A stretch of DNA of 48,232 nt from Patescibacteria group bacterium (GTDB taxonomy: Bacteria > Patescibacteriota > Patescibacteriia > JAACEG01): the NCBI GenBank assembly GCA_034660655.1, contig JAYEJU010000012.1, positions 1-48,232 of the forward strand, given 5' to 3'. Both the position numbers and the translations under genes were made by a program. The number at the start of each line of letters is the position of its first letter. The first letter of the stretch is position 1. Below are positions 2,441-43,261 of this stretch, in pieces. The notes under the pieces were generated by a model. It was not told the origin of the DNA and did no database searches. It saw nothing but the letters and a program-made list of their open reading frames with translations.

Positions 2441-3493
2441 TTATAGAAGTTTTAAAAGGTTTTTTCCAATAACTTTTCCAAGTATGGGAGGGACTGCATT
2501 TCCTACTTGTTTTAGTTGATCATTTTTCTTCCCACAAAAAATAAAAGTATCGGGAAAAGATTGTATTCTGGCAGACTCTCTTACAGTTGGCACTCTATTA
2601 AATTTATAATGAAAATGATGATTATGTCCTGTATCAATCGTAAAACTTGGTTTTTTACTATTTAATCTTGTCCAAGCAATATTTACTTTTCTTGTGTTCT
2701 GTAAATTTTTTGGTAAATCTTTATAGTTTCCTCCGTCTGGAACAAGTGAAATTATTTCCACTGTTTTTTCAGTATGTTTTGTTGTCTCATGATTGAAAAT
2801 TTTTATTGAATTTTCTCTTATCATTTTTTGATATTCTGATTTCGGAAAATGAGGGTACAAAGTACCGTCTTTAATTTCGTTTTCTGGTAAATCACTAATG
2901 GCTTCAAAAGCAGTTATTTTATTATCTTTATATTTTCCTTCTGGGAAAGTAAAACTTTTACCATTTTGCAATCCGACAAACACAACTCTTTTTCTGTTTT
3001 GAGGCACTCCAAAATCAGAAGTAAGCAAAATTTTATAAACTACTTTGTAACCTAATGCTTCAAATTCTTTTATGATTTGATCTTTAACTTTTCCATTATT
3101 CATGGCTACCAAATTTGGAACATTTTCCATAATAAAAGCCTTTGGCTTGAAATATTCAACAAAGGAAACAAAAGATTGATAGAGTTTATTTCTCGGATCG
3201 TTTGGATTTCTTTTTCCTGAAATTGAAAATCCCTGACATGGAGGACCACCAATAATCACATCAAATTTTCCATTGATTTCTTGAGGTTTAACTTTTGATA
3301 AATCTGCACATAAAACCTCTGAATTTTTATGATTATTTTTAAATGTTTTCAATGATTCTTCCCAATTATCTATGCCTAGTGAAATTTCAAAACCAGCCTG
3401 TTCAAAGCCAAGAGATAAACCACCGCAACCACAAAATAGATCTAAAACTTTTAAATTCTTTTTTGCCATTTTTGTTTTCGTATTTCCTTGCAT
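2441..3493 (-). CDS. DNA (cytosine-5)-methyltransferase
   Basis: FCGCGG (I), GGPPCQGFS (IV), ENVPNL (VI), QNRKRVVF (VIII), GNAVPP (X). Confidence 0.93.
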   Translation of the reverse strand: MQGNTKTKMAKKNLKVLDLFCGCGGLSLGFEQAGFEISLGIDNWEESLKTFKNNHKNSEVLCADLSKVKPQEINGKFDVIIGGPPCQGFSISGKRNPNDPRNKLYQSFVSFVEYFKPKAFIMENVPNLVAMNNGKVKDQIIKEFEALGYKVVYKILLTSDFGVPQNRKRVVFVGLQNGKSFTFPEGKYKDNKITAFEAISDLPENEIKDGTLYPHFPKSEYQKMIRENSIKIFNHETTKHTEKTVEIISLVPDGGNYKDLPKNLQNTRKVNIAWTRLNSKKPSFTIDTGHNHHFHYKFNRVPTVRESARIQSFPDTFIFCGKKNDQLKQVGNAVPPILGKVIGKNLLKLL

Positions 3494-3594: not shown

Positions 3595-3676
3595 AAAAAA
3601 TTAAAAAAATCAAATTCCTTATTTCTTAAAGCCCATCAAAAACATTTCAATAAACAAATTTTTCAAAAATATGTCG

Positions 3677-3810
3677 CCTAACATTTTGCATATCAGATGT
3701 TTTGCGAAGCGTAGCGGAGCAAAATATGGGAGAGGTCTCTGTTAAGAGACCGAACCTGATATGCTGTGTTAGCTGATGTATTCCTTTTCTTTCCCCGATT
3801 CTTATCGGGG
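3677..3810 (-). repeat. Degenerate copy of the long palindromic repeat family (lacks the 20-bp GC core)
   Basis: The reverse complement contains cccatattttgctccgctacgcttcgcaaaacatctgatatgc, matching 40035-40105 except for the cctgcctgccggcaggcagg insert. It also contains the ccccgat..atcgggg hairpin seen at 38221-38236. Confidence 0.5.
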
Positions 3811-3815
3811 TTGTT

Positions 3816-6392
3816 TTAAAAAATTTTCAAATTTCTTTGTTTATTTATTAAAATTCCTCGAGTAATTGGCCCAAAATAACCAATGCTCGGGGCTATACTG
3901 TTGTTTTTTTGGAATTTAATCAGAGCTTCTTTTGTTAGTCTGCCGAAAAACATTGTTTCTTCTCCAGGAGAGCCAGGTCCTGATTCAGTCAGGATAGAAC
4001 CATTGTTATTAAGGTAGATCTGCAATTGTTTTACATCACCTCCGGTTGAACCAAGAAATAAGTCGCGGGTAAATTCAGTCTCAGCTTTTTTATACTCTTC
4101 TGTTTTTTGATCCTTAATTTTTATTATTTTCCTCTCTGGGTAGGTGAGGTTGCTATTAATAGTTATAATCTCATCCCAATTATAATTAAAGTAATTGAAC
4201 GTTTTTTCATCGTAGATCCAGTGCTTTACCCCGTCCGTTAGCAAGTAGATCTTTGGTGAGTCTGCATACTTGATTAGTTTGTTGTTACCAAAAGACTGGA
4301 ATGATAGTTGCTCAAAAGTTAGGTCAATCCGGTTAACTAATAGTTCATTGTAGGTTAACTTAATATCATTAATATTATCGTTGTCTAAGTCAATGTGTTG
4401 GGCTTCTTCAATGTCCAGTTCTAATATTTGATGATTTGGTGTAATTTCCACTTTAATTTTTTGGCTTATCATGTCTAAATTAGCTATTTTTAGATTACAT
4501 ACTTGAGCCTCTTGTGTTTTACTGACTACGGCACTAAATTCTGCGGTTGAATCTATAAACATCAAAACATTGATTGGTGTTTGGTTAAATTTATGTATAG
4601 GTTTTAATTTATACATGGGAATAAAAGTATCAGTCTGACCAATACCAATCGACGGAAGAATGATACGTGCCCCACCACCAGAAGCATTACATGTACCGTC
4701 TGAAAGAGTATATCCATCATTGCAAGTAGCCACCCCGCAGGTTGGGTATGCGTTGTAGGTGGCGGTATTATCTATTGTTGGGCAGGTTGGGGTTATGAAT
4801 GCCCAAGAAGTTGTATCAGAAATACCAGCATAGCTATTTCCTGTCGCATCATCAAAGGCTGTGGCATCTATTTGGATATAATATTGTGTTTCATTATTTA
4901 GGTCAGAAGTGGGATCAATAGTGATTTCAGCGGTTCCAGAACCGGAAATATTAGATGTTACGTCAAACTGTTCAATTTGCGTGCCGTCTGATTTGTATAA
5001 AGTAATATAGCCCGATTCAGCATCAACAGCTTCATCAAAGGTAGCGACTATGTTAGAATTAATGGCCACACCAGTGGCACCGTCTGCAGGTGAGAGGGTG
5101 GAGACAGTGGGGTTGGTTTCATCCGCTGTAGTAAAGCTATATGTGGTGCTATTTGAAATACCAGCATAGCTATTCCCTGCCGTGTCGTCAAAGGCTGTAG
5201 CATCTATCTGTAAATAATAACTTGTTTGATCATCTAAATCAGCGGTTGGATTGATGGTTATTGTGTCTGTTCCCGACCCACTTATATCTGAGGTAACATC
5301 AAATTGCTGGACCAAAGTATCATCTGATTTGTATAATGTTATATTTCCGCTCTCTGCATCTACCGTTTCAGTAAAAGTAATCACAAGGCTTGAATCAGTT
5401 GCTACGCCGGTAGCATCATCCGCCGGAGTAGAACTAAGTAGCAAAGGATCACTATCTTGTGTATTTGTAATGATAATATTTGTACTATCTTCAACTGTTG
5501 CAGTCTCACCTCCTAAGCCACCATATTCAATAACATAATCAAGAGCATGAACAGGAACATAATCATTCCATCCACCTGAATTACTAATTGCTAAATAATT
5601 TTCAAATCCCGCATCTCCCTGATTTACATTATTTGGCTCTCCTACGTTCCAATCTTCATAAAATCCCGGAACAACACTTCCTCCTAGTCCTCCAGTCCAA
5701 AACTTTGTTCCTGCTTCAGGCCCCGTCGCCCATTCCCATTCACCCTCTGAAGCTCCTTCTGCTACTGCGTCTGAAGCACCATACCATGCGTCAGACCCTT
5801 GAGGCACCTTTGATTTAACAAAATCATTTTCACTAGAGCTGGTAATTGTTGCTAAATAACCAGTTAACCCATTGAATGAGCTAGAAGATGCGACAATTTT
5901 TGCCGCATCCCAATTTAAACCACTAGCTGATAGTTTATAGTAATGCCCATTATCTGGATTATAAGCAGCCCCGGTCGGAGTTGCAGATGCTTCTAGCGTG
6001 GTAGACGAACTTCCGCTTCCTTGATAAGAAAGAGTTGCAAGTGCATTATTAACATTAGTTTGTGAACCTTCAAAAGCAATTGTACTACTACCAGTCCAAT
6101 CTCCAGAACCATATCCTGTTGGAGCTGTTAATCCAGTTGAAGTTGTTATTTTTATAGTTCCACTTGTTACCGAAAGCGTGATAATAAGATCTGTAGAAAA
6201 ACCACTCACTGAGGAAGTTGTTCCCGAAGAAGAAAGCAGTACGTAGGATGTTGTATCTGCTTCCAATGTAGAGGGCATCGTAATCGTTGCCGCATGTACA
6301 TTACTTTTAAGTATAAAAAAACACATAAATGATAATACAGAAATTAATATTACTCTGTTTATTGTATTATTTTTTATAAAAGTTTTTATCAT
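3816..6392 (-). CDS. Secreted surface protein: signal peptide, C-type-lectin-like domain, two Ig-like repeats, C-terminal peptidoglycan-binding domain
   Basis: Start moved to M39 (ATG at 6392), giving MIKTFIKNNTINRVILISVLSFMCFFILKSNVHA as the signal peptide. CTLD-like W..A......GYLATITSSSENDFV...WYGASD..EGEWEW..G....W..GEPNN...ENYL..GGWNDY. Two ~112-aa repeats (TPADDATGV.../SPADGATGV...). C-terminal PG_binding_1-like GGDVKQLQIYLN...LTKEALIKFQ. Confidence 0.75.
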   Translation of the reverse strand: MIKTFIKNNTINRVILISVLSFMCFFILKSNVHAATITMPSTLEADTTSYVLLSSSGTTSSVSGFSTDLIITLSVTSGTIKITTSTGLTAPTGYGSGDWTGSSTIAFEGSQTNVNNALATLSYQGSGSSSTTLEASATPTGAAYNPDNGHYYKLSASGLNWDAAKIVASSSSFNGLTGYLATITSSSENDFVKSKVPQGSDAWYGASDAVAEGASEGEWEWATGPEAGTKFWTGGLGGSVVPGFYEDWNVGEPNNVNQGDAGFENYLAISNSGGWNDYVPVHALDYVIEYGGLGGETATVEDSTNIIITNTQDSDPLLLSSTPADDATGVATDSSLVITFTETVDAESGNITLYKSDDTLVQQFDVTSDISGSGTDTITINPTADLDDQTSYYLQIDATAFDDTAGNSYAGISNSTTYSFTTADETNPTVSTLSPADGATGVAINSNIVATFDEAVDAESGYITLYKSDGTQIEQFDVTSNISGSGTAEITIDPTSDLNNETQYYIQIDATAFDDATGNSYAGISDTTSWAFITPTCPTIDNTATYNAYPTCGVATCNDGYTLSDGTCNASGGGARIILPSIGIGQTDTFIPMYKLKPIHKFNQTPINVLMFIDSTAEFSAVVSKTQEAQVCNLKIANLDMISQKIKVEITPNHQILELDIEEAQHIDLDNDNINDIKLTYNELLVNRIDLTFEQLSFQSFGNNKLIKYADSPKIYLLTDGVKHWIYDEKTFNYFNYNWDEIITINSNLTYPERKIIKIKDQKTEEYKKAETEFTRDLFLGSTGGDVKQLQIYLNNNGSILTESGPGSPGEETMFFGRLTKEALIKFQKNNSIAPSIGYFGPITRGILINKQRNLKIF
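4800..5470 (-). repeat. Tandem ~336-bp intragenic duplication (two Ig-like modules)
   Basis: gaaataccagcatagctatt.c.tg.cg...tcatcaaaggctgt.gcatcta occurs at 4819 and again at 5155, a period of 336 bp (112 aa). Confidence 0.8.
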
Positions 6393-7422: not shown

Positions 7423-7439
7423 GAATTTATAATATAATT

Positions 7440-7690
7440 TGTAAGAATCAAGAGCATTGTTTGCACTTTTTGAAAAATTCTTCTTGGTTGTCATTCCGAA
7501 AAGTATAATTTCTCGACGAGCTTGCGAGTCGTAAGAAATTAACTTATCCGGAATCTACGCTATATATAACCACAAATCAATTAAAGCTATAGATTCCGGA
7601 TAAATGATTTTATAAAAGCTCGCAGGCTCGCTTAGAAAATCTATTTTCTGGAATGACAAAAAGTGTAAATAATGCTAGTATATCTTACAT
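7440..7690. repeat. Nested-palindrome element (~250 bp, ~33-bp terminal inverted repeats), MITE-like; copy 1
   Basis: Ends tgtaagaatcaagagcattgtttgcacttttt / aaaaagtgtaaataatgctagtatatcttacat are inverted repeats. Inner inverted pairs are ggttgtcattcc/ggaatgacaa and ttatccggaatcta/tagattccggataa. A shorter copy sits at 20347-20498. Confidence 0.7.
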
Positions 7691-7698
7691 ATAATTTT

Positions 7699-9222
7699 AT
7701 GTCATCAAAAATATTTTCAGCAGCAGCTGTTGGTTTAGACAGTGAATTAATAGAAGTAGAAGCTGATATTTCGGGCGGACTTGGTAATTTTATTATTGTT
7801 GGTCTTCCAGACACTGCCGTGCAGGAATCAAAAGAGAGGGTTAGAGCCGCTATTAAAAATAGTTTTATTCCTTTTCCGCAAACAAGAGTGACAATAAATT
7901 TGGCGCCTGCTGACATAAAAAAAGAAGGGCCTGCTTATGATTTGCCAATAGCAATCAGTATTTTGCTGGCAAACAATAAAAGATTTTTACCAAAGTATGA
8001 TTTGAAAAAATCTGTTTTTATTGGTGAGCTTTCATTAGACGGATCATTACGTGGTGTTAATGGAATATTGCCGATTGCCATAATGTGCAGAGATAGAAAA
8101 ATTAATACTCTGTATTTGCCAAAAGCTAATGTTAAAGAAGCGACTTTAATAAAAGGCGTTGAAATAATCCCTGTTGAAAATTTAAATCAATTAGTCAAAC
8201 ATTTAAGTGGAATTGAAAAAATATTGTCTTATCAATGTCATGGAAATTTTTTAAATCAGGAAAAGCAATATGCTTATGATATGGCGGATGTTCGCGGTCA
8301 GGAATACGCAAAAAGAGCAATGGAAATCGCGGCGGCTGGAGCGCATAATGTTATAATGGACGGGCCTCCAGGATCTGGAAAAACTTTATTAGCGCGGACA
8401 ATGCCGTCAATACTTCCTAAAATGACGTTGGAAGAAGTATTGGAAGCTACAAAGATTTACAGCGTGTCAGGCAAATTAGCAAAACGCAAACCATTAATAA
8501 ATATTCGCCCGTTTAGAAATCCGCACCATACTGCTTCTTCTGTTGCTTTAATCGGCGGAGGTTCGTGGCCAAAACCAGGCGAGATAAGTTTGGCTCACAG
8601 AGGAATTTTATTTTTGGATGAGTTTCCTGAATTTAATCGTCAAGTGTTAGAAAGTTTGCGCCAGCCATTAGAAGACGGAGTCGTGACTGTTTCGCGTGCG
8701 TCCAATAGTTTAGAATTTCCTGCTAAATTTATTTTAATCGCGGCGCAAAATCCATGTCCTTGCGGTTACGCAAGCGATCCTGACAAAGAATGCGTTTGCT
8801 CCCCCGGTCAGATTATGAAATATCAGCGCAGGATTTCAGGTCCGCTTTTAGACAGAATTGATATGCATATTAATGTGGAAAAAGTTAAATTGGAAAAATT
8901 AACCTCAGACGCAAAAGGCGAAAAATCAGAATTAATAAGAGAAAGGGTGCAAAAAGCGCGGAATATGCAGAATAAAAGATTTGAAGAAATGAATATTTTT
9001 ACTAACGCGGAAATGAGTTCGCGACAAGTAAAAGAGCTTTGTAAATCTGAAGACCAAGCGTTAAATCTTTTGAAAAATGCTGTTCAGCAATTTCATTTGT
9101 CAGCGCGTTCTTATTTTCGGATGTTAAAACTCGCTCGCACAATAGCTGATTTAGCGGAAGAAGAAATAATCAAAATTCAGCATATGGCAGAGGCGTTGCA
9201 ATACAGGCCAAAAACGGAATAA
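7699..9222 (+). CDS. comM: Mg-chelatase-family ATPase ComM/YifB
   Basis: Start moved to ATG 7699 (MSSKIFSAAAVGLD...). Walker A GPPGSGKT and Walker B ILFLDEFPEF are present, along with the N-terminal Lon-like domain and C-terminal ChlI-like region typical of YifB. Confidence 0.9.
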   Translation: MSSKIFSAAAVGLDSELIEVEADISGGLGNFIIVGLPDTAVQESKERVRAAIKNSFIPFPQTRVTINLAPADIKKEGPAYDLPIAISILLANNKRFLPKYDLKKSVFIGELSLDGSLRGVNGILPIAIMCRDRKINTLYLPKANVKEATLIKGVEIIPVENLNQLVKHLSGIEKILSYQCHGNFLNQEKQYAYDMADVRGQEYAKRAMEIAAAGAHNVIMDGPPGSGKTLLARTMPSILPKMTLEEVLEATKIYSVSGKLAKRKPLINIRPFRNPHHTASSVALIGGGSWPKPGEISLAHRGILFLDEFPEFNRQVLESLRQPLEDGVVTVSRASNSLEFPAKFILIAAQNPCPCGYASDPDKECVCSPGQIMKYQRRISGPLLDRIDMHINVEKVKLEKLTSDAKGEKSELIRERVQKARNMQNKRFEEMNIFTNAEMSSRQVKELCKSEDQALNLLKNAVQQFHLSARSYFRMLKLARTIADLAEEEIIKIQHMAEALQYRPKTE

Positions 9223-9734: not shown

Positions 9735-11358
<1,624 letters not shown>

Positions 11359-11498
11359 AATATCCAGTTAAAGATTAACTGGAAAAAAGTTTAAAATCCA
11401 AACTAAAAATAAAAAGAAATTATTACTTGTTGCTGTTCAATTGTTAAAGTTCTCAAATAAAAAATTGATAAAAATAGATTTTTATTTTTATTATTTTT

Positions 11499-20233: not shown

Positions 20234-20346
20234 GACACAAAAACAAAAAATATTTATAATCAAAGTATATTAAATATTCAAATAAAAATTTTAAATTTTT
20301 GACGCCCCAAATATTGACTTTTATAGCCTTAAAGCTACAATATAAA

Positions 20347-20498
20347 ATGTAAGATATGATAGAGTTATTTATACTTTTTGAAAAATTTTTTTTGGTTGTC
20401 ACGCTATATATAATTACAAATCAACTAAGGTTCTAGATTCTGGATAAATGATTTTCTAAAATGACAAAAAGTGTAAACAACGCTCTTGGCTCTTATAT
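20347..20498. repeat. Nested-palindrome element, short copy 2
   Basis: Ends atgtaagatatgatagagttatttatacttttt / aaaaagtgtaaacaacgctcttggctcttatat. The central 55 nt (cgctatatataattacaaatcaactaaggttctagattctggataaatgatttt) is co-linear with 7558-7611. Confidence 0.7.
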
Positions 20499-20520
20499 AT
20501 AAAATAATAAAATAAATTTT

Positions 20521-21225
20521 ATGAAAAACAATTTTTTTGAAAAAATACAATTAGAAGAAACGGAAAAAGAATTTTCCAGTGATCGTTGTTTAGAGCAGGC
20601 AATAACTTATATCAGTGATTTTAAAAAATTTTATGAAAGCGATTTTGTAAAAGAAACCTCTATGGAAAAATATGGATTTTCAAAACAAGAGCAAGAAAAA
20701 ATATTAGGACTGGCAGAAAAATTAAAAAGTAATATACTTGATGAATATGAAAATAATGAAAAATTATTAGTGTCAGGAGATTCTCAATTCAAACATTTAG
20801 CTGGAAATTCTACAATGGTTTTTGCTGGCGGGCAGGCAAGGCGTTATGAAAGTGGAAAAACAATTTCCGAAGAATTCAGAAAAAAGATAAAAAATCAAAT
20901 AGAACTTTTAAATTATTATATTCAAGAATTAGTTGAAAATAAAGAATTATTGCAAGACGAATTAACGCTTAAAAACGGGCATTTGCAAAAATTTTCTAAA
21001 TATTTTTCCAGTGAAGTAGTTTCTGAGTCGCCAAAAAGAATTTTAGTTTTTAAATTTTTTCGCGATTTAGAAAAACAAGGAATCCTCAAAAAAAACTTTT
21101 CTCATCGTTTAGAAGAAATAGATGAAGAAACCAAAATAAAAAATTTTTTAGACATTAAAAAATTAGAGCAAGAAGGATTAATTTTAGTAAAAGAAAACGA
21201 TGATGAAATATATAAATATGTTTAA
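20521..21225 (+). CDS. Hypothetical protein
   Basis: 234-aa ORF, Lys/Glu-rich, with no recognisable motif. It is tightly packed, 6 nt upstream of alaS. Confidence 0.5.
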   Translation: MKNNFFEKIQLEETEKEFSSDRCLEQAITYISDFKKFYESDFVKETSMEKYGFSKQEQEKILGLAEKLKSNILDEYENNEKLLVSGDSQFKHLAGNSTMVFAGGQARRYESGKTISEEFRKKIKNQIELLNYYIQELVENKELLQDELTLKNGHLQKFSKYFSSEVVSESPKRILVFKFFRDLEKQGILKKNFSHRLEEIDEETKIKNFLDIKKLEQEGLILVKENDDEIYKYV

Positions 21226-32677: not shown

Positions 32678-33109
32678 TTGAATAATGTAATGTTGGTAAA
32701 AATTGACGCTATGCCTAATTTTAACGGCAGAAGATTTACGAATAACCATGAAACGCTAATTTGGGCGGTAAAAAATAAAAATTGCAAAAATTATACTTTT
32801 AATAACGAATTTTTGAAGCAAATGAATGGCGGACAGCAAATGAAAGACACGGATTGGGTGTTTAAAATTTGTCGCGGAGCAGAAAGATTAAAAGATGAAA
32901 ACGGCATAAAAGCTCACCCCACGCAAAAACCGCTTAAACTTATTCAGCAAGTTTTGTTAGCGGCAAGCAAAAAAGACGATATTGTTTTAGATCCATTTTT
33001 GGGAAGCGGTACTACCGCTTTCGTTGCCAAAGCGCTTGGCAGAAATTGGATAGGAATTGAGAAAGAAAAAAAATATGTTGATTTAGCAGACAGTAGGTTG
33101 AGACAATAA
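32678..33109 (+). pseudogene. 5'-truncated CcrM/HinfI-type N6-adenine DNA methyltransferase (C-terminal ~140 aa only)
   Basis: MPNFNGRRFTNNHETLIWA...ERLKDENG.KAHPTQKPLKL...VLDPFLGSGTTAFVAK aligns with the C-terminal half of CcrM as I recall it ([21 protein letters not shown]...HPTQKP...DPFFGSGT). The DPPY motif-IV region is absent and there is no ATG start. Confidence 0.75.
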
Positions 33110-33119
33110 TTTTGAAATC

Positions 33120-34724
33120 ATGAAAATTTCCAAAATAATAACTGAAAATTACCGCTCAATTCAAAAGACCGAAATTTTACCGAATAATTTTTCGGTTTTT
33201 GTGGGTCAAAATAATCATGGCAAAACTAACTTTTTTGAATCAATAGAATGGTTTTATACCGCGAAATCATCCAAAGCAGACGAGCATTTTAATAAAGATG
33301 AAACAAATAAAATATCTGTAGAAATCTTTTTTGAAGATGTAGTCGAATCTGATATTGAAAAATTAACTACTGACGCAAACAAAACAAAAATAAAAACAAT
33401 GCTTGGCGAGCATAAAAATTTTTCTGTTTTGAAAACCAGCACAGATCATAAAAGAAAATATTTTGTTAATGACGAAGACAAGGGTAATCCGTCTGGCTTA
33501 GACACAGCTATAAATGAATTTTTACCAAAATTAGAATACGTGAATACAAAAATATGTCTTGATGATGTTTCAAAGTATAAAGACAAAAATCCAATAGGCA
33601 CAATGCTATCAGGAGTCTTAACTGCAATTATTGAAAATTCTCAGGATTATATAGATTTTAAAGCACAATTTTCAAAATTATTTGATAGCGACTCCTCTGA
33701 AGTGCGGCAAGAATTAGACAAGCTGGGAACAAAAGTTGAAATATATTTGCAAAAACAATTTCCAGACGGTACAAAAGTTAAATTCGGAGTTAATCCTCCA
33801 AATTTTAACGACTTGCTAAAAAGTTTTGACACAACAGTTGATGATGGTATTGAAACAAAGGCGGAAGATAAAGGCGATGGAATGCAAAGAGCTATAATGC
33901 TATCAATTATTCAAGCATTCGCAGATTATAGAAAAGAAAAGAGTGGTGGCGGAACATTTCTATTTTTAATTGACGAGGCAGAATTACATCTACACCCTTC
34001 GGCCCAACGAGCGTTGAAAAAAGCCTTGATTGATATTTGCACAACCGATCAAGTTTTTATCAATACTCATTCATCGGTTTTAGTGGTAGAAGATAATAAA
34101 TGTCAAAAAATTTTTAAAGTAGAAAAAACAAATAAGATTACCGACATAACAGAAGTTGGCGAAGCAGAAAAAATTGATGTTATTTTTGATTTATTAGGTG
34201 GCAGTCCTTCCGATCTTTTTTTGCCAAGAAATTTTTTAATCGTCGAAGGCAGAAGTGAATTTGAATTTATAAATTGCATAATCAAACGTTTTTATATTTC
34301 AAAATACAAAGGAATAAAAATAATTTTTGCGGGTGGCGATATTGACGAGCAAGAACCAAGCTTACTCGCTGTCCACAAACTTTTTGTACCATTGGCAGGA
34401 TCTGATAATCCGATATATAAAGACAAGGCAGTAGTACTAATTGATAAACCAAACAGCAAACAACAAACAAAATATGATCAATTCAAAGCTGGCTATCCAT
34501 ATTTATTTGAGAATAAACAGGTTTTTGAATTAGATGTTGAAACACTTGAGCAATATTATCCTAATGGATACAAAAAAGCAAAAAACGAGATAGATGCGAA
34601 TAAAAAAGTTGAATACACAAAAGAGGTTGCTACGAATATTACAAAAGAGCAATTTGAATCAGAAATGAAAATCATATTTGATGCGTTGGAAGCTGTCAAT
34701 ACAAAAGGATTTAATCCGAATTGA
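33120..34724 (+). CDS. OLD-family-like ABC-type ATPase with C-terminal Toprim-like nuclease domain
   Basis: Walker A GQNNHGKT, signature-like GDGMQR, Walker B FLFLIDEAELHLHP, and H-loop NTHS. The C-terminal FLIVEGRSEFEF ... GGDIDE is Toprim E / DxD-like. Confidence 0.7.
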   Translation: MKISKIITENYRSIQKTEILPNNFSVFVGQNNHGKTNFFESIEWFYTAKSSKADEHFNKDETNKISVEIFFEDVVESDIEKLTTDANKTKIKTMLGEHKNFSVLKTSTDHKRKYFVNDEDKGNPSGLDTAINEFLPKLEYVNTKICLDDVSKYKDKNPIGTMLSGVLTAIIENSQDYIDFKAQFSKLFDSDSSEVRQELDKLGTKVEIYLQKQFPDGTKVKFGVNPPNFNDLLKSFDTTVDDGIETKAEDKGDGMQRAIMLSIIQAFADYRKEKSGGGTFLFLIDEAELHLHPSAQRALKKALIDICTTDQVFINTHSSVLVVEDNKCQKIFKVEKTNKITDITEVGEAEKIDVIFDLLGGSPSDLFLPRNFLIVEGRSEFEFINCIIKRFYISKYKGIKIIFAGGDIDEQEPSLLAVHKLFVPLAGSDNPIYKDKAVVLIDKPNSKQQTKYDQFKAGYPYLFENKQVFELDVETLEQYYPNGYKKAKNEIDANKKVEYTKEVATNITKEQFESEMKIIFDALEAVNTKGFNPN

Positions 34725-37867: not shown

Positions 37868-37920
37868 TTTTAGGCAAAGGGAATTCACCCTTTTAATTTC
37901 CCTCTTCCCTTTGCCTAAAA
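37868..37920. repeat. G-box hairpin repeat (stem ttttaggcaaaggga/tccctttgcctaaaa)
   Basis: 15-bp perfect stem with loop attcacccttttaatttccctct, related to the loops of the 1-58 and 34746-34781 copies. Confidence 0.6.
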
Positions 37921-37989: not shown

Positions 37990-38305
37990 CTGCGGATTTG
38001 CTTTTCAAAGTTATTCTGGAAATTTATATTTAAATCAGTATTAAAATCAGTTTTTCTTTTCACGTTCATCCAAAGCAAATCCTTGTCCCGTTGCGCCTGC
38101 CTGCCGGCAGGCAGGCTCTCCTCCTTTCAGTCGTCGTGGCGTAAACAAGGGATAAAAGGAAAATTGCTCGGCTCGCAATTTTCCCAAATTTTTTTTGCTA
38201 CGCTCTGAAAATTTTTTTTATCCCCGATGTTATCGGAAATAATCAAAAGTTTTTTATCAGCTTAGCGGATAATTATTTGGGGCTATTTTTTATTTTTATA
38301 TTACA
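37990..38305 (+). repeat. Long palindromic repeat, copy A (GC core 38095-38114; right arm shared with copy B)
   Basis: Core cctgcctgccggcaggcagg. 38221-38300 (ccccgatgttatcggaaataatc...tcagcttagcggataattatttggggctattttttattttt) is near-identical to 40110-40180. Extra hairpins are ggaaaattgc/gcaattttcc and ggatttgcttt/aaagcaaatcc. Confidence 0.75.
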
Positions 38306-38311
38306 AAAACC

Positions 38312-38341
38312 CTTAACAAAATGGGGGGGGTAGTGATAAGG
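38312..38341 (+). promoter_or_regulatory. Candidate promoter (duplicate of the one at 40198-40225)
   Basis: TTAACA-18 nt-(TGA)TAAGGT. The surrounding block cttaacaaaatgggg...tagtgataaggta aligns with 40196-40226. Confidence 0.55.
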
Positions 38342-38404
38342 TATCAATGACTATCATGGTGGTAGTTAAATCGTTCATTCCAAACCAAAAGGAGGTGAGA
38401 ACCG

Positions 38405-38545
38405 ATGGGAAAAAAGAACACTCCAACACGCGGACCTTCGAAACATGGTGGTTGGGGAGGCAAGAGAGCATCTAAGGGAGGTGGCCTTTCCACAACGAAA
38501 TCCGGAGGCAAATCCGGAACTTCTGGCGGTGGCAAAAAGAAATAA
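38405..38545 (+). CDS. 46-aa Gly/Lys-rich basic peptide (below the ORF-track cut-off)
   Basis: MGKKNTPTRGPSKHGGWGGKRASKGGGLSTTKSGGKSGTSGGGKKK. GGAGG lies 10 nt upstream of the ATG. The gene has its own promoter and its own terminator (38559-38591). Confidence 0.6.
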   Translation: MGKKNTPTRGPSKHGGWGGKRASKGGGLSTTKSGGKSGTSGGGKKK

Positions 38546-38558
38546 ATGTTACCGCAAA

Positions 38559-38591
38559 GCGAGGTAGATTTCATAATTACCTCGCTTTTTT
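38559..38591 (+). terminator. Intrinsic terminator
   Basis: Stem gcgaggta/tacctcgc followed by tttttt. Confidence 0.8.
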
Positions 38592-38700
38592 AATATTACG
38601 ATACATGTTATAATATAACTAACTTAATTTGCTTACATTAATAAATAGTCAAGTGTAACGCATTAGGTTAGAATGGTCTAAATTATATTATTCCACAACT

Positions 38701-39900
38701 ATGTTAAAATTTTATCTTAAAAAATTGAAAAATAATTTAACTGTATTTATTATTAAAACACAAAAATTATCATCTCTTGATATTACTTTGTATATTAAGA
38801 CTGGTTCAGTTTATGAAGATAAAAAAAATAATGGAATTTCCCATTTACTTGAACATTTGCTCTTTCTAAAAACTAAACAACTTGAATTACATCCCATTGT
38901 CCTTGATATATATCCATATACTAGAAAGGATTTTACTTATTTTGAAATTACTACTTATAAAGATTTAATAAATGATGCTCTGTCATCTCTATTTTCAGTA
39001 ATTGCATTTCCTGATTTTACAGAAAATAATCTTAAAATTATTAAAAAAATTACCACAGAAGAAATAATGGAATTTTATGATAATCCTTGTGATGTTTTAA
39101 ATCAAAAAATAGATCAATTTTTATATCAAAAGAACAGCTTGGCGCTTAATGTGGCAAGTAGCGAAGAAAATCTAAAAAATATTACCATAGCAAATTTAAA
39201 AGAATGGTATAAAAATTTTTATGTTCCAAGCAATATGATTTTAACCTTAGTTGGTGATATAAATATCAGCAAAACAATAAAACAAATTAATAATATTTTC
39301 CATTTTAATAATTTATCTGATAGAACAAGTAAAAATAAAAAAATTGGCAAGATTGTTTATCCCAAGACTATATCAAAGCCAATCAAATTAAAAAGTAGTA
39401 ATAATTTTAAACAAACATATTTAACTTTTGTCTTCCCAGTGTCCAGCATTAATAATTCAAAATATACTCATTTTATTTTGTTAGCAGAAATTTTAAATAA
39501 AAAAATAAGGCAAAAAATGGAAAATAGCGGCCTCTTTTATGATATTCAGTTTTGTTACCATCACTATTTAAATGTAGGAGAATTTAGGATAATAACTGCT
39601 TGTAAAAAAAATAATACGGATAAAATAATAAAAAAAATTTATAATTTTATTAATGCTATTAAAATATCGGATTCATTTTTTAATGAAACAAAAAAATATA
39701 TTAAATATCAATTTTTATTAAAAGAGGATAATGTAGACGAATTGTCATCTTTGTCTTTGTATTTATTAAATAACAATTCTAAATTAACTACTCTTAAAGA
39801 TGAAATAGATAAAATTGACAGTATAAAATTTGATGAAATAATCACTATTAAGAAAAAATATTTTAATAAGAAAAACAGTTATCATTTTCTAATGAATTAA
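38701..39900 (+). CDS. M16 (pitrilysin/insulinase) family zinc peptidase
   Basis: GSVYEDKKNNGISHLLEHLLFLKT contains the inverted zinc motif HxxEH. The 399-aa length is compatible with M16 N- plus C-domains. The gene is extremely AT-rich. Confidence 0.8.
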   Translation: MLKFYLKKLKNNLTVFIIKTQKLSSLDITLYIKTGSVYEDKKNNGISHLLEHLLFLKTKQLELHPIVLDIYPYTRKDFTYFEITTYKDLINDALSSLFSVIAFPDFTENNLKIIKKITTEEIMEFYDNPCDVLNQKIDQFLYQKNSLALNVASSEENLKNITIANLKEWYKNFYVPSNMILTLVGDINISKTIKQINNIFHFNNLSDRTSKNKKIGKIVYPKTISKPIKLKSSNNFKQTYLTFVFPVSSINNSKYTHFILLAEILNKKIRQKMENSGLFYDIQFCYHHYLNVGEFRIITACKKNNTDKIIKKIYNFINAIKISDSFFNETKKYIKYQFLLKEDNVDELSSLSLYLLNNNSKLTTLKDEIDKIDSIKFDEIITIKKKYFNKKNSYHFLMN

Positions 39901-39906
39901 AAAAAT

Positions 39907-40190
39907 TAAAAATAAAAAATAGCCATAAATAATGTTTTGATTCCCGCCAATTCGGCGGGCAGGCGCAAAACAAAAATTTTTAATTACATCCGATAACAGC
40001 GTGTATGAGGCTACGGCTTCTATACAAGTTTCCACCCATATTTGCCATATTTTGCTCCGCTACCTGCCTGCCGGCAGGCAGGCGCTCCGCAAAACATCAG
40101 ATATACGCAAACGTTATCGGAAATAATTAAAAATTTTTTATCAGCTTAGCGGATAATTATTTGGGGCTATTTTTTATTTTTTCATCGCAA
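39907..40190 (+). repeat. Long palindromic repeat, copy B (complete; GC core 40062-40081)
   Basis: The left end aaaataaaaaatagccataaataat is the inverted repeat of the right end ataattatttggggctattttttatttt. The internal arms aaaaatttttaattacatccgataac/gttatcggaaataattaaaaattttt pair. The left half matches copy C and the right half matches copy A. Confidence 0.8.
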
Positions 40191-40197
40191 CAAAATC

Positions 40198-40225
40198 CTT
40201 GACAAAATGGGGAATAGTGATAAGG
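40198..40225 (+). promoter_or_regulatory. Candidate promoter for the rSAM operon
   Basis: TTGACA-16 nt-TAAGGT with a TGA extended -10, 43 nt upstream of the ATG at 40268. Confidence 0.6.
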
Positions 40226-40267
40226 TACTGTCAGTTCTTTAACATCAAAAACAAGGAGGATAGAAAC

Positions 40268-41683
40268 ATGGAAAAACAAAAGTATCAGTTATCCCCAAAT
40301 ATCCGCATTATATCTGATTCTGAATCAGATATGGCGATGGTTTATCACGCCCTATATGGTAATCCTCGAATTATCAATGACGAGGGTTTGCGATTTTTGA
40401 ATCTTTTCAAACGACCAAGCAGCGCAGAAGAAATCTCTGAAATTTGCGACGACAATCCAAAGGGTACAATTCAAGAGTTCGCCGAGATTTTCTTTCTTGT
40501 CGAACCCGGCTTTGACGAGAAAAAATTCCTACGAGAGAAGAAAGAACAACAACTCATCGAAGTACAGAAGCAAAGGACGGTTGACCGAATGGGCCTCGCA
40601 ATCAGCGATTCGTGCAACTTTGGATGTACACACTGCATTCATTTCCAGCCTGCGACCAATCTTGATCAAGTGCTGCCTATATATCAACGAGCGGCTCCGC
40701 AACTCAATATGACTTGGGAAATCGCAAAGCGATGCGTAGATCAGTATGTTGCATTAATGAGAGAGCAAGAAAAGACTCACGGAAAGATACATTTTGGAAA
40801 CGCAGAACCGTTAGTCAATTGGCCTGTTATTGAGCAAGTGCTTGAATACTGCGATAAGATGAGCGATTTCTCATTTGAATTTGCCATCAATACAAATCTG
40901 GTACTCATGACAAAGCAGATCGCCGAGACATTCAAACGATATCAAGTCCGTATCGCAACGTCACTTGACGGAACTCAAATAGCTAACGATGCTATTCGCA
41001 TTACAAAAGGTGGGCGGGGAACATTTACCCGCATCCTTGAGAAGTTCGATCTCCTATCAGAGATCGGTTATTCGCTTGATGGATTCAGTATCACTGTTAC
41101 AAGAGGCAACTTCGAACTCATTGACACAGATATTTTAGACTTGGCCATTGAAAGAAGAATGTCTTCAATCGCTTTCGATTATGACCTTGTTGGTCTGATT
41201 CACATTTCTGCTGAGGAACGAATTGCAAAACTCATGCGACTCAAAAAGTACGCCAATGAACACGGCATTGACTTCTTTGGAACATGGGATTCTCCGTTTC
41301 GTAATCTGACCTCAGAAAGTCTATTGTCTGGAGATCACGCGTTTTGTGCCGCCGTTCAAGGCAAATCCATTGAGTTTAATGTGAATGGCAGTATCAAGAT
41401 CTGTAGTCACACCACCACGACGATCGGGCATCTCGACAGCTTCGATGAGATGTTCGGAAAAAATGGTGGTTTAACACAGATTGTTGCCAATCGTTTTCCG
41501 GGGACAGATGAATACTGTTCCGGGTGCGAGATTGAAGGTCCGTGCGGTGGACAATGCCATGTCACCAGAGAGGTTGTTTCTCGTTCAATGGGTGGGGAAC
41601 AACAAGAAATTTTTACAGATATGTGTAATTTCTATCGCGGAATCACAAAAGCGCTTGCGATAGAGTATATCCGGTCAAGCTGA
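40268..41683 (+). CDS. Radical SAM / SPASM-domain peptide-modifying enzyme with N-terminal RRE-like (PqqD-like) region
   Basis: Start at ATG 40268, with GGAGG 9 nt upstream. CNFGCTHC (CxxxCxxC). SPASM signature C..(x)..NGSIKIC then CSGCEIEGPCGGQC (CX2CX5CX3C). N-terminal LRFLNLFKRPSSAEEISEICDD..IQEFAEIFFLVEPG. GC content is visibly higher than in neighbouring genes. Confidence 0.85.
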   Translation: MEKQKYQLSPNIRIISDSESDMAMVYHALYGNPRIINDEGLRFLNLFKRPSSAEEISEICDDNPKGTIQEFAEIFFLVEPGFDEKKFLREKKEQQLIEVQKQRTVDRMGLAISDSCNFGCTHCIHFQPATNLDQVLPIYQRAAPQLNMTWEIAKRCVDQYVALMREQEKTHGKIHFGNAEPLVNWPVIEQVLEYCDKMSDFSFEFAINTNLVLMTKQIAETFKRYQVRIATSLDGTQIANDAIRITKGGRGTFTRILEKFDLLSEIGYSLDGFSITVTRGNFELIDTDILDLAIERRMSSIAFDYDLVGLIHISAEERIAKLMRLKKYANEHGIDFFGTWDSPFRNLTSESLLSGDHAFCAAVQGKSIEFNVNGSIKICSHTTTTIGHLDSFDEMFGKNGGLTQIVANRFPGTDEYCSGCEIEGPCGGQCHVTREVVSRSMGGEQQEIFTDMCNFYRGITKALAIEYIRSS

Positions 41684-41737
41684 ACCGCGGCGGTCGGCAA
41701 CCGTCAAACCTGCATCTTATGAAAGGAGGTGAGCCAG

Positions 41738-41833
41738 ATGAGAAAGATCAAGATCAAAAAGATCAAGATTGCCAAGGTCGTCCCACTGCCTTCGGGGATG
41801 TCTTTCCCCGGCAAACGAACCAGTTGCAAGTAA
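41738..41833 (+). CDS. 31-aa candidate precursor peptide (unannotated small ORF)
   Basis: MRKIKIKKIKIAKVVPLPSGMSFPGKRTSCK. GGAGG lies 8 nt upstream of the ATG. It starts 54 nt after the rSAM stop on the same strand and is followed at once by a terminator. Confidence 0.6.
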   Translation: MRKIKIKKIKIAKVVPLPSGMSFPGKRTSCK

Positions 41834-41842
41834 TTGCAGCCC

Positions 41843-41882
41843 GTGGGGTTAAGTACGTAAGTGTTTAACCCCACTTTTTTTT
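41843..41882. terminator. Intrinsic terminator (bidirectional; overlaps the 3' end of the convergent kinase gene)
   Basis: Perfect 10-bp stem gtggggttaa/ttaaccccac followed by tttttttt. Confidence 0.8.
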
Positions 41883-42797
41883 GTCCCACTGCACCACAAG
41901 TTCATAAATATTTTTTTGAGGATTATTTGAGCTCACTGCCCAATGAAGCGCGTTAAGATAAAAAATGGCATAAACAAACTGATATTTTTTCTGAAATAAT
42001 TTTTTATCTTCTACAAGAGTGGATTCCCAAATCGCCGCAATGAGTTTATCCATATAATCAGCTTCAAATGTTTCATCAACGCCCTGCTCTTGATATGCTT
42101 TAGCGCACTCTTGATAATAAAAGAGGCGAGAGAGATCATAGTTGGGATCGCCAAATAACGCTAATTCCCAATCAAGTACCCCCGTTAAATTTTTACCATC
42201 AGTAAGTAAATTATGAATAATAAGATCGCCATGAACTAAGGTAAACTTTATTTTAGTAGTAAATAGATTTTTAATTTCGGGGTTATTAATTATTAAAAAT
42301 AAATCCCGCAATAATTTATTAGCTTGCTCAAATTTTTTAATATCAATACTTTTCTGCTTTACTCCATCTGTAAGGTAGTCCAAAAACCTTTTATATTTTT
42401 TACCTGTTTTTACCGAATAAATATTATCTTTTATTATGATTCTCTGATACTGAAGAAATTCAACGACTTGTTTGATAATATCACTTTTACTGCTTGACGA
42501 AAGATTTTTCCAAGTTAAATCCATTGTCTGTCCGGGAAGGCGATTCTCAACCATAAAAAATAATTCATCAATTTTTCCATACCATAAAACTTTTGGTATT
42601 AATTGATAATTAAGACGCTTTAAAAAATTTGCCTCTCTTAGTAAAAGTTTAGGGTTATCGTCCCTAAAACGTATAACATAGTTATCCGAGAGAAAAACTT
42701 TGTAGTTAGTGCCACTTGGCGCAACCGTAAAATTTTCCCCTACGGGGATGGCAAATTGTCTCTTAATTTTTTTAATTCGTAAAAGATAATTTTTCAT
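41865..42797 (-). CDS. APH/choline-kinase-fold phosphotransferase
   Basis: Catalytic loop LVHGDLIIHNLL and metal-binding VLDWELALFGDPNYDL. Confidence 0.8.
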   Translation of the reverse strand: MKNYLLRIKKIKRQFAIPVGENFTVAPSGTNYKVFLSDNYVIRFRDDNPKLLLREANFLKRLNYQLIPKVLWYGKIDELFFMVENRLPGQTMDLTWKNLSSSSKSDIIKQVVEFLQYQRIIIKDNIYSVKTGKKYKRFLDYLTDGVKQKSIDIKKFEQANKLLRDLFLIINNPEIKNLFTTKIKFTLVHGDLIIHNLLTDGKNLTGVLDWELALFGDPNYDLSRLFYYQECAKAYQEQGVDETFEADYMDKLIAAIWESTLVEDKKLFQKKYQFVYAIFYLNALHWAVSSNNPQKNIYELVVQWDKKKWG

Positions 42798-42903
42798 AGT
42801 ATAATTTTATCAAAAATAATAATATTTGTCATTTTTTAAAAATTTTAAAGATTGAATTTTAACTTATTTTAATTTATAATATCAGTATATGGTACGATTT
42901 CAA

Positions 42904-43110
42904 AAAAATAAAAAATAGCCCTAAATAATATTTTGATTCCCGCCAATTCGGCGGGCAGGCGCAAAACAAAAATTTTTAATTACATCCGATAACGGCGTGT
43001 ATGAGGCTACGGCTTTTTACAAAAGCCTCTACCCATATTTGCCTCAGCTACCTGCCTGCCGGCAGGCAGGCGCTACGGCAAACATCAGATATGCCGAAAC
43101 GTTATACGCA
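42904..43110 (+). repeat. Long palindromic repeat, copy C (GC core 43051-43070; divergent right arm)
   Basis: 42904-43100 aligns with 39907-40110 (aaaataaaaaatagcc.taaataat.ttttgattcccgccaattcggcgggcaggcgcaaaacaaaaatttttaattacatccgataac.gcgtgtatgaggctacggc...). The 20-bp core is identical. Confidence 0.8.
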
Positions 43111-43189
43111 ATTTAAAAAATATTTTTGCTATATTAAAAATAAAAAAGCCATAATTTAATATTATGGTTTTTATATAACAATTAAATTG

Positions 43190-43261
43190 TACCGCTAACG
43201 GGAATCGAACCCGTGTTTCCGCCGTGAGAGGGCGATGTCCTAACCCCTAGACGATAGCGGC
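43190..43261 (-). tRNA. tRNA-Glu (CTC)
   Basis: Reverse complement GCCGCTATCGTCTAGGGGTTAGGACATCGCCCTCTCACGGCGGAAACACGGGTTCGATTCCCGTTAGCGGTA; anticodon loop CTCTCAC. Confidence 0.9.

Follow-up and report, generated by a model that had tools for sequence, protein, structure and literature searches.

A 20-nt palindrome nested in local repeats of a Patescibacteria genome recurs across phyla and viruses and accompanies a tRNA-embedded mini GIY-YIG nuclease cassette

The small dispersed repeats (SDRs) of cyanobacteria are reportedly 21-27 nt long, precisely inserted and nested, and spread by an unknown mechanism. Rickettsia palindromic elements (RPEs) measure 100-150 bp and are confined to Rickettsia, GC clusters are organellar, and the 'byps' of Magnusiomyces are translationally bypassed. 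Such ultra-short palindromic mobile repeats have been described over several decades, but to our knowledge neither an enzyme nor a mechanism has been assigned to them, be they SDRs, RPEs or organellar GC clusters. GIY-YIG homing endonucleases, for their part, include the free-standing Seg proteins of phage T4, with SegB located in the T4 tRNA region, and I-TevI, whose cut site is some way off from the site of insertion; we know of no Seg or Tev enzyme that is accompanied by a duplicated tRNA part and a constant 20-nt palindrome. Here we analyze a stretch of 48,232 nt from a Patescibacteria group bacterium (contig JAYEJU010000012.1 of assembly GCA_034660655.1; the window hereafter, at its full length), in which a 20-nt perfect palindrome, CCTGCCTGCCGGCAGGCAGG (F1), occurs three times and a 21-nt hairpin module, CCCGCCAATTCGGCGGGCAGG (F2), occurs twice within a family of intergenic repeats. 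We propose, with a probability of roughly 60%, that F1 and F2 are mini-palindromes of promiscuous insertion, here nested within a local repeat, and that a mini GIY-YIG nuclease probably mobilizes them in trans.

By their behavior, SDR4-6 of Nostoc and other cyanobacteria appear to be the closest analogue of F1. Like F1 and F2 (20-21 nt), SDRs (21-27 nt) are very small modules that are precisely inserted, form hairpins, are often nested and encode no protein. SDRs are, however, cyanobacteria-specific and present in high copy number per genome, whereas F1 occurs in eight or more phyla and in viruses, at one to few copies per locus, and is partnered with a mini GIY-YIG cassette in tRNA genes; the sequences are unrelated. 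None of the F1 matches listed comes from cyanobacteria, and the F2 matches are likewise not cyanobacterial. The precise insertion of SDRs into HIP1 is restated in an excerpt of PMC4390886, and the SDR study of Elhai et al. (2008) is cited in an excerpt of PMC3116915. Repetitive extragenic palindromes (REPs), with their REPIN arrangements and REP-associated tyrosine transposases (RAYTs), resemble F1 in being 20-40-nt GC-rich palindromes that are non-autonomous, intergenic and the building blocks of mosaic repeats (bacterial interspersed mosaic elements, BIMEs). REPs carry a GTAG or CGTC head (PMC3733652), which both F1 and F2 lack. They are moreover species-specific, high-copy and mobilized by RAYTs (Y1 HUH), whereas neither a RAYT nor an IS200-like gene recurs near F1 in 155 loci. 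RPEs and mitochondrial GC clusters share with F1 and F2 the condition of GC-rich palindromes in AT-rich genomes, with insertion in frame and into RNA genes and nesting in hairpin loops, but they are neither tied to a specific nuclease gene nor conserved across phyla, in contrast with the 20-21-nt F1 and F2 of many phyla.

An initial annotation of the window had pointed out three repeats with an identical 20-bp palindrome and a modular homology, together with a fourth, degenerate copy devoid of the palindrome. Alignment confirmed the three copies, with two of the palindrome's start positions moved by one (38096 and 40063), as well as the modular homology and the fourth copy. The four elements, A, B, C and D4, form a genome-specific local family of AT-rich, nested-palindrome intergenic repeats, referred to below as the scaffold. 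Its hairpin loops hold F1 and F2 as nested insertions, mini-palindromes that are independent of it and widely distributed. The elements and their insertions are located as follows.

37990..38343, plus strand: element A, a degenerate left part bearing F1, then a right module at 38229-38343
39908..40190, plus strand: element B, the full scaffold, between the stop codon of an M16 peptidase gene and a radical SAM (rSAM) gene
42904..43125, plus strand: element C, a homologue of B, between a tRNA-Glu with its terminator and the start of an aminoglycoside phosphotransferase (APH)-like gene
3655..3790, minus strand: element D4, a diverged scaffold copy without F1, that is, an empty-site paralogue, upstream of the minus-strand gene at 2441-3493
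38096..38115, strandless: F1 in element A, the 20-nt perfect palindrome
40063..40082, strandless: F1 in element B, where the central hairpin has its apex (gcta^cgct); absent from the paralogue D4
43051..43070, strandless: F1 in element C; its apical site is that of B
39943..39963, plus strand: F2 in B, a hairpin module of 21 nt lying in a hairpin loop with the stem GTTTTG/CAAAAC
42939..42959, plus strand: F2 in C, the same 21-nt hairpin module

F1 has exactly these three matches in the window, where dinucleotide-preserving shuffles give an expectation of 0 even with 3 mismatches. Elements B and C are 86% identical over 233 aligned nt, and 97% identical over the left 112 nt. The right module of A (38229-38343) is 88% identical to 40113-40227 of B over 117 nt, in which a promoter-like block (TTGACA/TTAACA...TAAGGT) is included; C has a left inverted repeat only, and lacks both the right inverted repeat and this block. 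The flanks of F1 in A are ~67% similar to the reverse complement of the flank in C. F1 begins with CCTG and F2 with CCCG, and both end with CAGG. Between B and C, F1 is 100% identical amid 95 flanking nt that are 81% identical, for which the neutral chance is 0.81^20, or ~0.015; this identity fits recent independent insertion at the same loop, homogenization, or a constraint imposed by the mobilizing machinery. The 20-bp palindrome had been regarded as the defining core of the repeat. This description has to be abandoned, as F1 is an independent module found in many phyla and in viruses, and the same applies to the cccgcc-aattc-ggcggg hairpin.

The comparison of B with D4, a true minus-strand homologue over ~135 nt, reveals how F1 sits in DNA. 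D4 reads ...gctccgcta and directly afterwards cgcttcgc..., whereas B reads ...gctccgcta, the 20-mer and then cgctccgc...; the difference is exactly 20 nt, and F1 lies in a TAC triloop without duplicated target bases. The earlier suggestion that the core looks like an insertion into the apical loop was right, and proved central. At every site for which an uninterrupted paralogue could be compared, F1 is in the same manner a clean 20-nt insertion without target duplication. Besides B and D4, such empty-site comparisons are provided by two copies of a tRNA 5' part in a viral locus (L155), and by pseudo-tRNAs set against intact tRNAs at six other loci (L037, L106, L118, L211, L223, L224); the one exception is L221, with an insertion of 21 nt. 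Target-site duplication is not a general rule, none being present in ~70% of F1 copies. Base counts at flank position -1 (A 69, C 29, G 50, T 15) and at position +1 (A 15, C 39, G 43, T 66), both with p ~1e-7, correspond to a weak preference for insertion immediately 3' of A (or G), whichever strand is read.

In tRNA-derived DNA, F1 lies in or at the edge of cloverleaf loops, with two exceptions located 2 nt inside the D stem. Most of these sites are in the D loop (GAA^ATTGG in tRNA-Leu, GGATA^GAGC in tRNA-Arg), and the others in the anticodon, T and variable loops. Solo copies occupy hairpin loops with stems of at least 6 bp in 9.2% of cases vs. 4.0% of controls (p = 0.008), and F1 is also found nested in F1-like copies (L018, L042, L146, L021). 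In bona fide protein genes, F1 always stands in one frame, read as LPAGRQ, with one extra base that brings the addition to 21 nt; the proteins concerned are FtsK (L013), GatB (L104), RfbB (L021), bS6 (L047) and a glycosyltransferase-like membrane protein. A single frame is what selection would leave of random insertions. To judge from their reading frames, the copies in protein genes are translated rather than removed. F2, too, is found in frame: four contigs representing three distinct sequences (L167, L169, L173, L200) have it at one shared position of a NifS/IscS-like cysteine desulfurase gene, with flanks that differ by ~15-20% around an identical 21-mer. Either an orthologous insertion that has been conserved or a hot spot could account for this.

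The distribution of F1 extends far beyond the window. In a genome scan for the exact 20-mer, with one genome per species, F1 was found in at least 120 loci from eight or more phyla, with unrelated flanks. For comparison, the uniform-chance expectation for a 20-mer palindrome, by simple arithmetic, is ~0.5 in 596 Gb. The group counts, drawn from 80 of the matches listed, are given below.

Patescibacteria: 24 loci
Bacteroidota: 22 loci, including the isolates Winogradskyella echinorum, Flagellimonas yonaguniensis, Longitalea luteola and Flavivirga sp.
Gammaproteobacteria/Pseudomonadota: 8 loci
Planctomycetota/PVC (Planctomycetes-Verrucomicrobia-Chlamydiae): 7 loci
Omnitrophota: 6 loci
Deltaproteobacteria/Bdellovibrionales: 6 loci
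Unclassified: 4 loci
Thermodesulfovibrio: 2 loci
Chloroflexi: 1 locus

Viruses carry F1 as well: it was found in 35 viral-contig stretches of IMG/VR, with up to six copies on one 29.5-kb contig, and a composition-matched control palindrome had 0 viral matches. A fetched locus usually holds one to few copies, and the flanks show no likeness between loci or to the window. Decayed copies with one mismatch exist, as do a variant of 16 nt, CCTGCCTGCAGGCAGG, and a rare symmetric one, CCTGCCTACCGGTAGGCAGG (1 viral match). These are evolving sequences and not a laboratory artefact. An origin of F1 as a sequencing adapter, linker or chimera was considered and rejected on the grounds that the flanks are contiguous, that isolates and several platforms are represented, that copies have decayed, and that the coding copies are all in one frame. 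A full-text search of one literature library found no paper containing the 20-mer, its halves or the encoded peptides.

F2 was found in 50 JGI metagenome contigs, in ~27 unrelated contexts. The loci picked for F2 also hold exact and near-exact F1, and further mini-palindromes, such as TCCGCCAGCTGGCGGA, recur among them. Many contigs of the candidate phyla radiation (CPR; L164, L172, L174, L177, L178, L187, L189, L197-L199) have a ~110-nt conserved segment after a tRNA 3' end, in which F2 is embedded as ...agccaatttgtaaagtttgcgtttcccgcctcgctcggggcttcgcccctcgct, F2, tcggcggacgaattttcaagcaatttcc...; this segment may be a composite repeat or an unrecognized RNA.

A partner for F1 was found in a family of free-standing mini GIY-YIG open reading frames (ORFs) of ~80 aa (~78-88 aa), which match the Pfam GIY-YIG domain (PF01541). 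Among the fetched loci, 8 of 12 such ORFs are within 130 nt of an exact F1 or F2 module (binomial p ~1e-7). The cassette has a recurrent order, namely a tRNA 5' part split by F1, 16-25 nt, the GIY-YIG ORF, and the intact version of the same tRNA (L155, L037, L106, L118), and the F1 site is 6-30 nt from the insertion point of the ORF. Loci that had not been selected for F1 gave varied pictures: an F1 variant replaces the segment from D loop to anticodon in a pseudo-tRNA-Met (L077), a 36-nt CCTGCC...GGCAGG palindrome stands in a pseudo-tRNA-Gln (L172), three F1-like copies lie within a pseudo-tRNA (L210), and F1 is absent from two further GIY-YIG loci (L074, L093). A profile search of a protein database with the GIY-YIG ORFs returned at least 7887 homologues, mostly of 77-82 aa, the named sources of which are Bacteroidota, Omnitrophota, WWE3 and Chlorobi. 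To remove ascertainment bias, seven independent GIY-YIG loci were then picked by protein similarity alone, the DNA being ignored. All seven carry F1 or a near-copy of it in tRNA-derived fragments beside the ORF, as follows.

L211, metagenome: exact F1 in the D loop of tRNA-Leu
L221, Chitinophagaceae: exact F1 in the 5' fragment and a second exact F1 in the T loop of the 3' fragment
L219, isolate of Ekhidna lutea: two copies in tandem, both degenerate
L220, Cytophagales: a T-loop fragment that holds one degenerate copy
L222, Leeuwenhoekiella: a pseudo-tRNA-Arg of nearly full length with exact F1 in its anticodon loop, and a variant upstream
L223, Chlorobi: exact F1 in the D loop
L224, metagenome: exact F1 in the D loop

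F1 is thereby shown to belong integrally to a family of mini GIY-YIG cassettes embedded in tRNA genes. Topic searches of the literature, including the CPR, found no description of a cassette made of GIY-YIG ORF, tRNA and palindrome. The cassette resembles the Seg enzymes and I-TevI in that a small selfish GIY-YIG ORF resides at conserved genes, here tRNA genes, with a predicted cut site displaced from the insertion; it differs in the size of its proteins, which at ~78-88 aa consist of the catalytic domain alone, without a DNA-binding domain. A tblastn search with the GIY-YIG protein found no match in GenBank phages or PLSDB plasmids, and a protein-guided scan of viral contigs yielded 2 GIY-YIG loci only.

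Three further arrangements were seen among these loci. In L093, a mini GIY-YIG ORF (4757-5042, minus strand) lies inside a 23S rRNA gene, with rRNA on both sides and no F1, which indicates that the cassette family or a relative also invades rRNA genes. In the viral locus L155 (820-1000), the second, F1-free copy of the tRNA-Lys-like 5' part continues beyond the anticodon stem as a long stretch unrelated to tRNA, which may be an intron or another insertion. In L060, from a metagenome-assembled genome (MAG) of Thermodesulfobacteriota, F1 at 3861 lies ~40 nt upstream of a GIY-YIG domain, which is joined in frame to the C-terminal end of a 714-codon ORF; a host gene seems to have captured the cassette.

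The mechanism that we favor is built on these associations. The mini GIY-YIG nuclease would make the breaks where F1 inserts, acting in cis in the duplicated piece of tRNA and in trans elsewhere, including at the hairpin tips of the window. Insertions in cis would be harmless because an intact copy of the tRNA follows. On this model the F1 copies of the window would be solo insertions, and the nuclease responsible would be encoded by a virus or at another place in the genome. More tentatively, and as something we consider possible rather than probable, F1 could be the smallest transposable unit so far observed for which a partner enzyme can be named. It would insert without duplicating its target, at breaks due to a nuclease reduced to its catalytic domain, the gene of which resides inside tRNA genes and spreads between phyla and viruses, with F2 and other CCGCC...GGCGG mini-hairpins as sister modules.

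Several observations weigh against trans-mobilization by the nuclease and the view of F1 on which it depends. Only ~5-8% of F1 copies adjoin a GIY-YIG gene, and no gene family is common to most F1 neighborhoods, the most frequent reaching 8 of 155 loci and consisting of phage genes. The window contains neither a GIY-YIG gene nor a degenerate remnant of one, and no tRNA-derived sequence was found in scaffolds A-D4; the local F1 copies are therefore solo, and their link to the nuclease is indirect. None of them shows the combination of ORF, intact tRNA and F1-bearing partial tRNA by which the tRNA-embedded cassette is recognized. The database matches were found by exact match, so that the invariance of F1 is in part a matter of ascertainment. 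The preference of all solo copies for hairpin loops is not significant when stems of at least 4 bp are counted (17% vs. 13%). In addition, ~8% of F1 copies have exact flanking direct repeats of 6-14 nt, often inside arrays of 7-nt tandem repeats, which a mechanism without duplication does not predict. Finally, the three F1 sites lie in a local assembly without independent contig coverage: the same genes recur on Logan contigs of the same sample (run SRR26901924), but these contigs stop within the repeats and leave the F1 sites unspanned.

F1 and F2 copies often abut such 7-nt tandem arrays, in L124 (10590-10670 and 11200-11320) and also in L101, L002, L132, L145, L176 and L186. Array arms such as ggtgaga and tctaacc would pair with G-T wobbles, and a few copies have exact direct repeats of 7-14 nt on their flanks.

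The association with the GIY-YIG gene could also be passive, and this is the main rival to the nuclease model. F1 would then be moved by other machinery, or by host repair or replication at hairpin loops, and would accumulate in the pseudo-tRNA pieces of the cassettes as neutral, loop-rich landing sites. Such a view accommodates the fact that most F1 copies are solo, as well as the variety of insertion positions in tRNA fragments (D, anticodon, T and variable loops), and the tandem or nested copies of some pseudo-tRNAs (L210, L219) look like repeated opportunistic events. Nevertheless, the presence of F1 or a near-copy in every one of the seven protein-selected cassettes is far above any plausible background density, and the phyla carrying F1 match those carrying this GIY-YIG subfamily. 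We regard a passive association as doubtful.

According to another explanation, A, B and C would be copies of one Correia-like MITE (a miniature transposable element with inverted repeats), with the GC palindrome as functional core and an outward promoter delivered to the gene downstream. Correia elements are 100-155 bp long, generate TA target duplications, reach hundreds of copies and are restricted to Neisseria. The likeness of B to the Correia/NEMIS elements lies in its ~26-bp terminal inverted repeats, its long hairpin potential, its intergenic position and its promoter-like block; neither B nor C matches them in size, copy number or host, and there is no sequence similarity. The terminal inverted repeats ascribed to B in the initial annotation were recovered, 39908-39933 pairing with 40156-40181 over 26 nt at 92%. 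B was also said to fold end to end into one long hairpin. Its fold is indeed strong (-102 to -110 kcal/mol, z ~-9, on both strands) and includes an outer stem, but the predicted structure is multibranched, with three inner hairpins, rather than one continuous hairpin.

The promoter-like blocks on which this explanation also draws are the following.

40198..40225, plus strand: block of B, TTGACA, 16 nt, TGaTAAGGT, 43 nt upstream of the rSAM start codon at 40268
38313..38342, plus strand: block of A, TTAACA, 18 nt, TAAGGT, upstream of the 46-aa Gly-rich peptide gene at 38405-38545

D4 is followed by a degenerate block (G-run, AAGGT), such that scaffold and block stand upstream of three different genes in the same orientation (A and B, degenerate at D4), those behind A and B being unrelated; C, without a block, faces the APH gene in the opposite orientation. 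The idea of a portable promoter survives to the extent that the block is repeated upstream of two genes and in degenerate form at a third, but the block is not called by a consensus sigma-70 promoter scan, TAAGGT matching at 3 of 6 positions. The location of the copies at gene boundaries would also suit a MITE. On the other hand, hundreds of other genomes contain the supposed core and the second hairpin as independent modules amid unrelated flanks, and D4 lacks the core. No direct repeat matches across the ends of B (aaaaaatt / ttcatcgc), although the AT-rich flanks, in which no target-site duplication is definable, could mask a 2-nt duplication, and there is no transposase. The A-B homology runs ~45 nt beyond the right inverted repeat, promoter-like block included, and the inverted repeat is thus not the end of the element. 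The window holds two full and two partial scaffold copies in 48 kb; 20 kb of a syntenic Falkowbacteria relative contain no F1, F2 or B-like sequence, and no B/C-like flanks were found among the 50 metagenome contigs containing F2. What stands of the earlier comparison with Correia-type MITEs is a palindromic intergenic family with inverted repeats. As a MITE the scaffold is unproven, and we consider this explanation unlikely.

A structured cis-regulatory or small RNA, with changes in the stems as the trace of selection on RNA structure, is less probable still. The strength of the fold is consistent with this proposal, as are the 6 of 36 pairs altered on both sides among B, C and D4 and the G-U pairs of the inner stem. 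The co-variation seen beside F1 by the initial annotation (ttttgc/gcaaaa vs. tttgcc/ggcaaa) is real; since both strands fold equally well, as a DNA palindrome would, and since only three sequences are compared, these symmetric stem changes do not tell selection on RNA structure apart from upkeep of the palindrome as DNA. A 52-nt element that had been cited as a relative (37868-37920) turned out to be a separate hairpin just downstream of the preceding gene. The GC hairpins that provide much of the stability are foreign insertions, and C is oriented oppositely to its downstream gene. A search of Rfam 15 returned nothing in A, B or C even at E values up to 10, the matches at the gathering threshold in the window being tRNAs and 16S rRNA only. 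We therefore find it improbable that these repeats act as RNA.

It is very improbable that the 20-bp palindrome is an operator through which a dimeric regulator would control three transcription units of the island in which the repeats lie, which resembles those for ribosomally synthesized and post-translationally modified peptides (RiPPs). Three copies perfectly kept amid diverged flanks, with the low neutral probability calculated above for B and C, would suit an operator, as would the position of two of them 135-220 nt upstream of promoter-like blocks. However, the identical sequence occurs in many phyla, in coding regions, pseudo-tRNAs and phage intergenic regions, without shared neighboring genes; no regulator gene was found among the annotated proteins of the island, and D4, which has a promoter-like block, lacks the palindrome. 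Regulation of the RiPP genes probably does not involve F1 or F2. Least credible of all is an assembly artefact, in the form of collapsed or chimeric joins, for although the same-sample Logan contigs break off within the repeats, B and C are too diverged to be collapsed, removing 20 nt from the contiguous F1 flanks restores hairpins and tRNAs exactly, and F1 occurs in isolate genomes and assemblies of different technologies, along with one-mismatch decayed copies.

The repeats flank pieces of a RiPP-like island inserted beside tRNA-Glu, the genes of which are listed here.

38405-38545, plus strand: island gene for a 46-aa Gly-rich peptide
38701-39900, plus strand: M16 peptidase gene, 22% GC
40268-41683, plus strand: rSAM/SPASM peptide maturase gene, 41-44% GC
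41738-41833, plus strand: gene for a 31-aa peptide, after the rSAM gene
41865..42797, minus strand: APH-family kinase gene, convergent with the rSAM operon, with element C upstream
43189..43261, minus strand: tRNA-Glu, marking the island boundary

The window has a GC content of ~30% and contains one 16S rRNA gene and seven tRNAs; its UppS is closest to Patescibacteria, with 71% identity to a protein of Candidatus Falkowbacteria. The gene order shared with the Falkowbacteria relative (GyrA-L32-NusB-tRNA-Thr x2-L33-UppS-tRNA-Glu) stops at tRNA-Glu, which places the island in a tRNA-flanked variable spot. No tyrosine recombinase, the kind of enzyme expected near an integron attC or cassette boundary site, turned up among the annotated proteins of the island and its immediate neighbors. 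The segment at 40198-41860, with the rSAM and 31-aa peptide genes, has 41-44% GC vs. 22% for the M16 peptidase gene, a compositional mosaic joined at B, with 22% and 43% GC on its two sides. The scaffold may be a terminator/promoter module and a recombination substrate that helps to assemble the mosaic island; none of the F1 and F2 sites was called as an intrinsic terminator, and no T run follows either module.

Elsewhere in the window, a second repeat family unrelated to A-D is found at 7428-7694 and 20336-20502, as three consecutive blocks that are 77-87% identical, with a 70-nt inverted repeat (7488-7557 / 7590-7659); both copies are just upstream of plus-strand genes (7672-9222 and 20521-21225). 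The 16S rRNA gene (9736-11359, minus strand) is 1624 nt long against a model of 1533 positions, and the ~90 nt in excess fit the rRNA insertions common in Patescibacteria. In the stretch at 32678-34724, a DNA methyltransferase fragment (32678-33109) is followed by an OLD/AbiEii-like AAA ATPase (534 aa), and together they look like a defense-type pair just upstream of the island region.

These findings have consequences for the reading of genomes. F1 and F2 modules can upset tRNA prediction, lengthen conserved proteins by 7-aa inserts, cause repeat-induced contig breaks in MAGs and mimic 'conserved regulatory palindromes', as in the window, whose three identical cores are not to be taken as operators or as the signature of a MITE. 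The tie between F1 and the GIY-YIG ORF offers a concrete candidate enzyme and cultured hosts, such as Ekhidna lutea for the cassette and the F1-bearing Bacteroidota isolates, and there is a fair chance that this link makes F1 a new class of mobile element. If true, this class would provide a mechanistic entry to the 'mobile hairpins' of cyanobacteria, Rickettsia and organelles.

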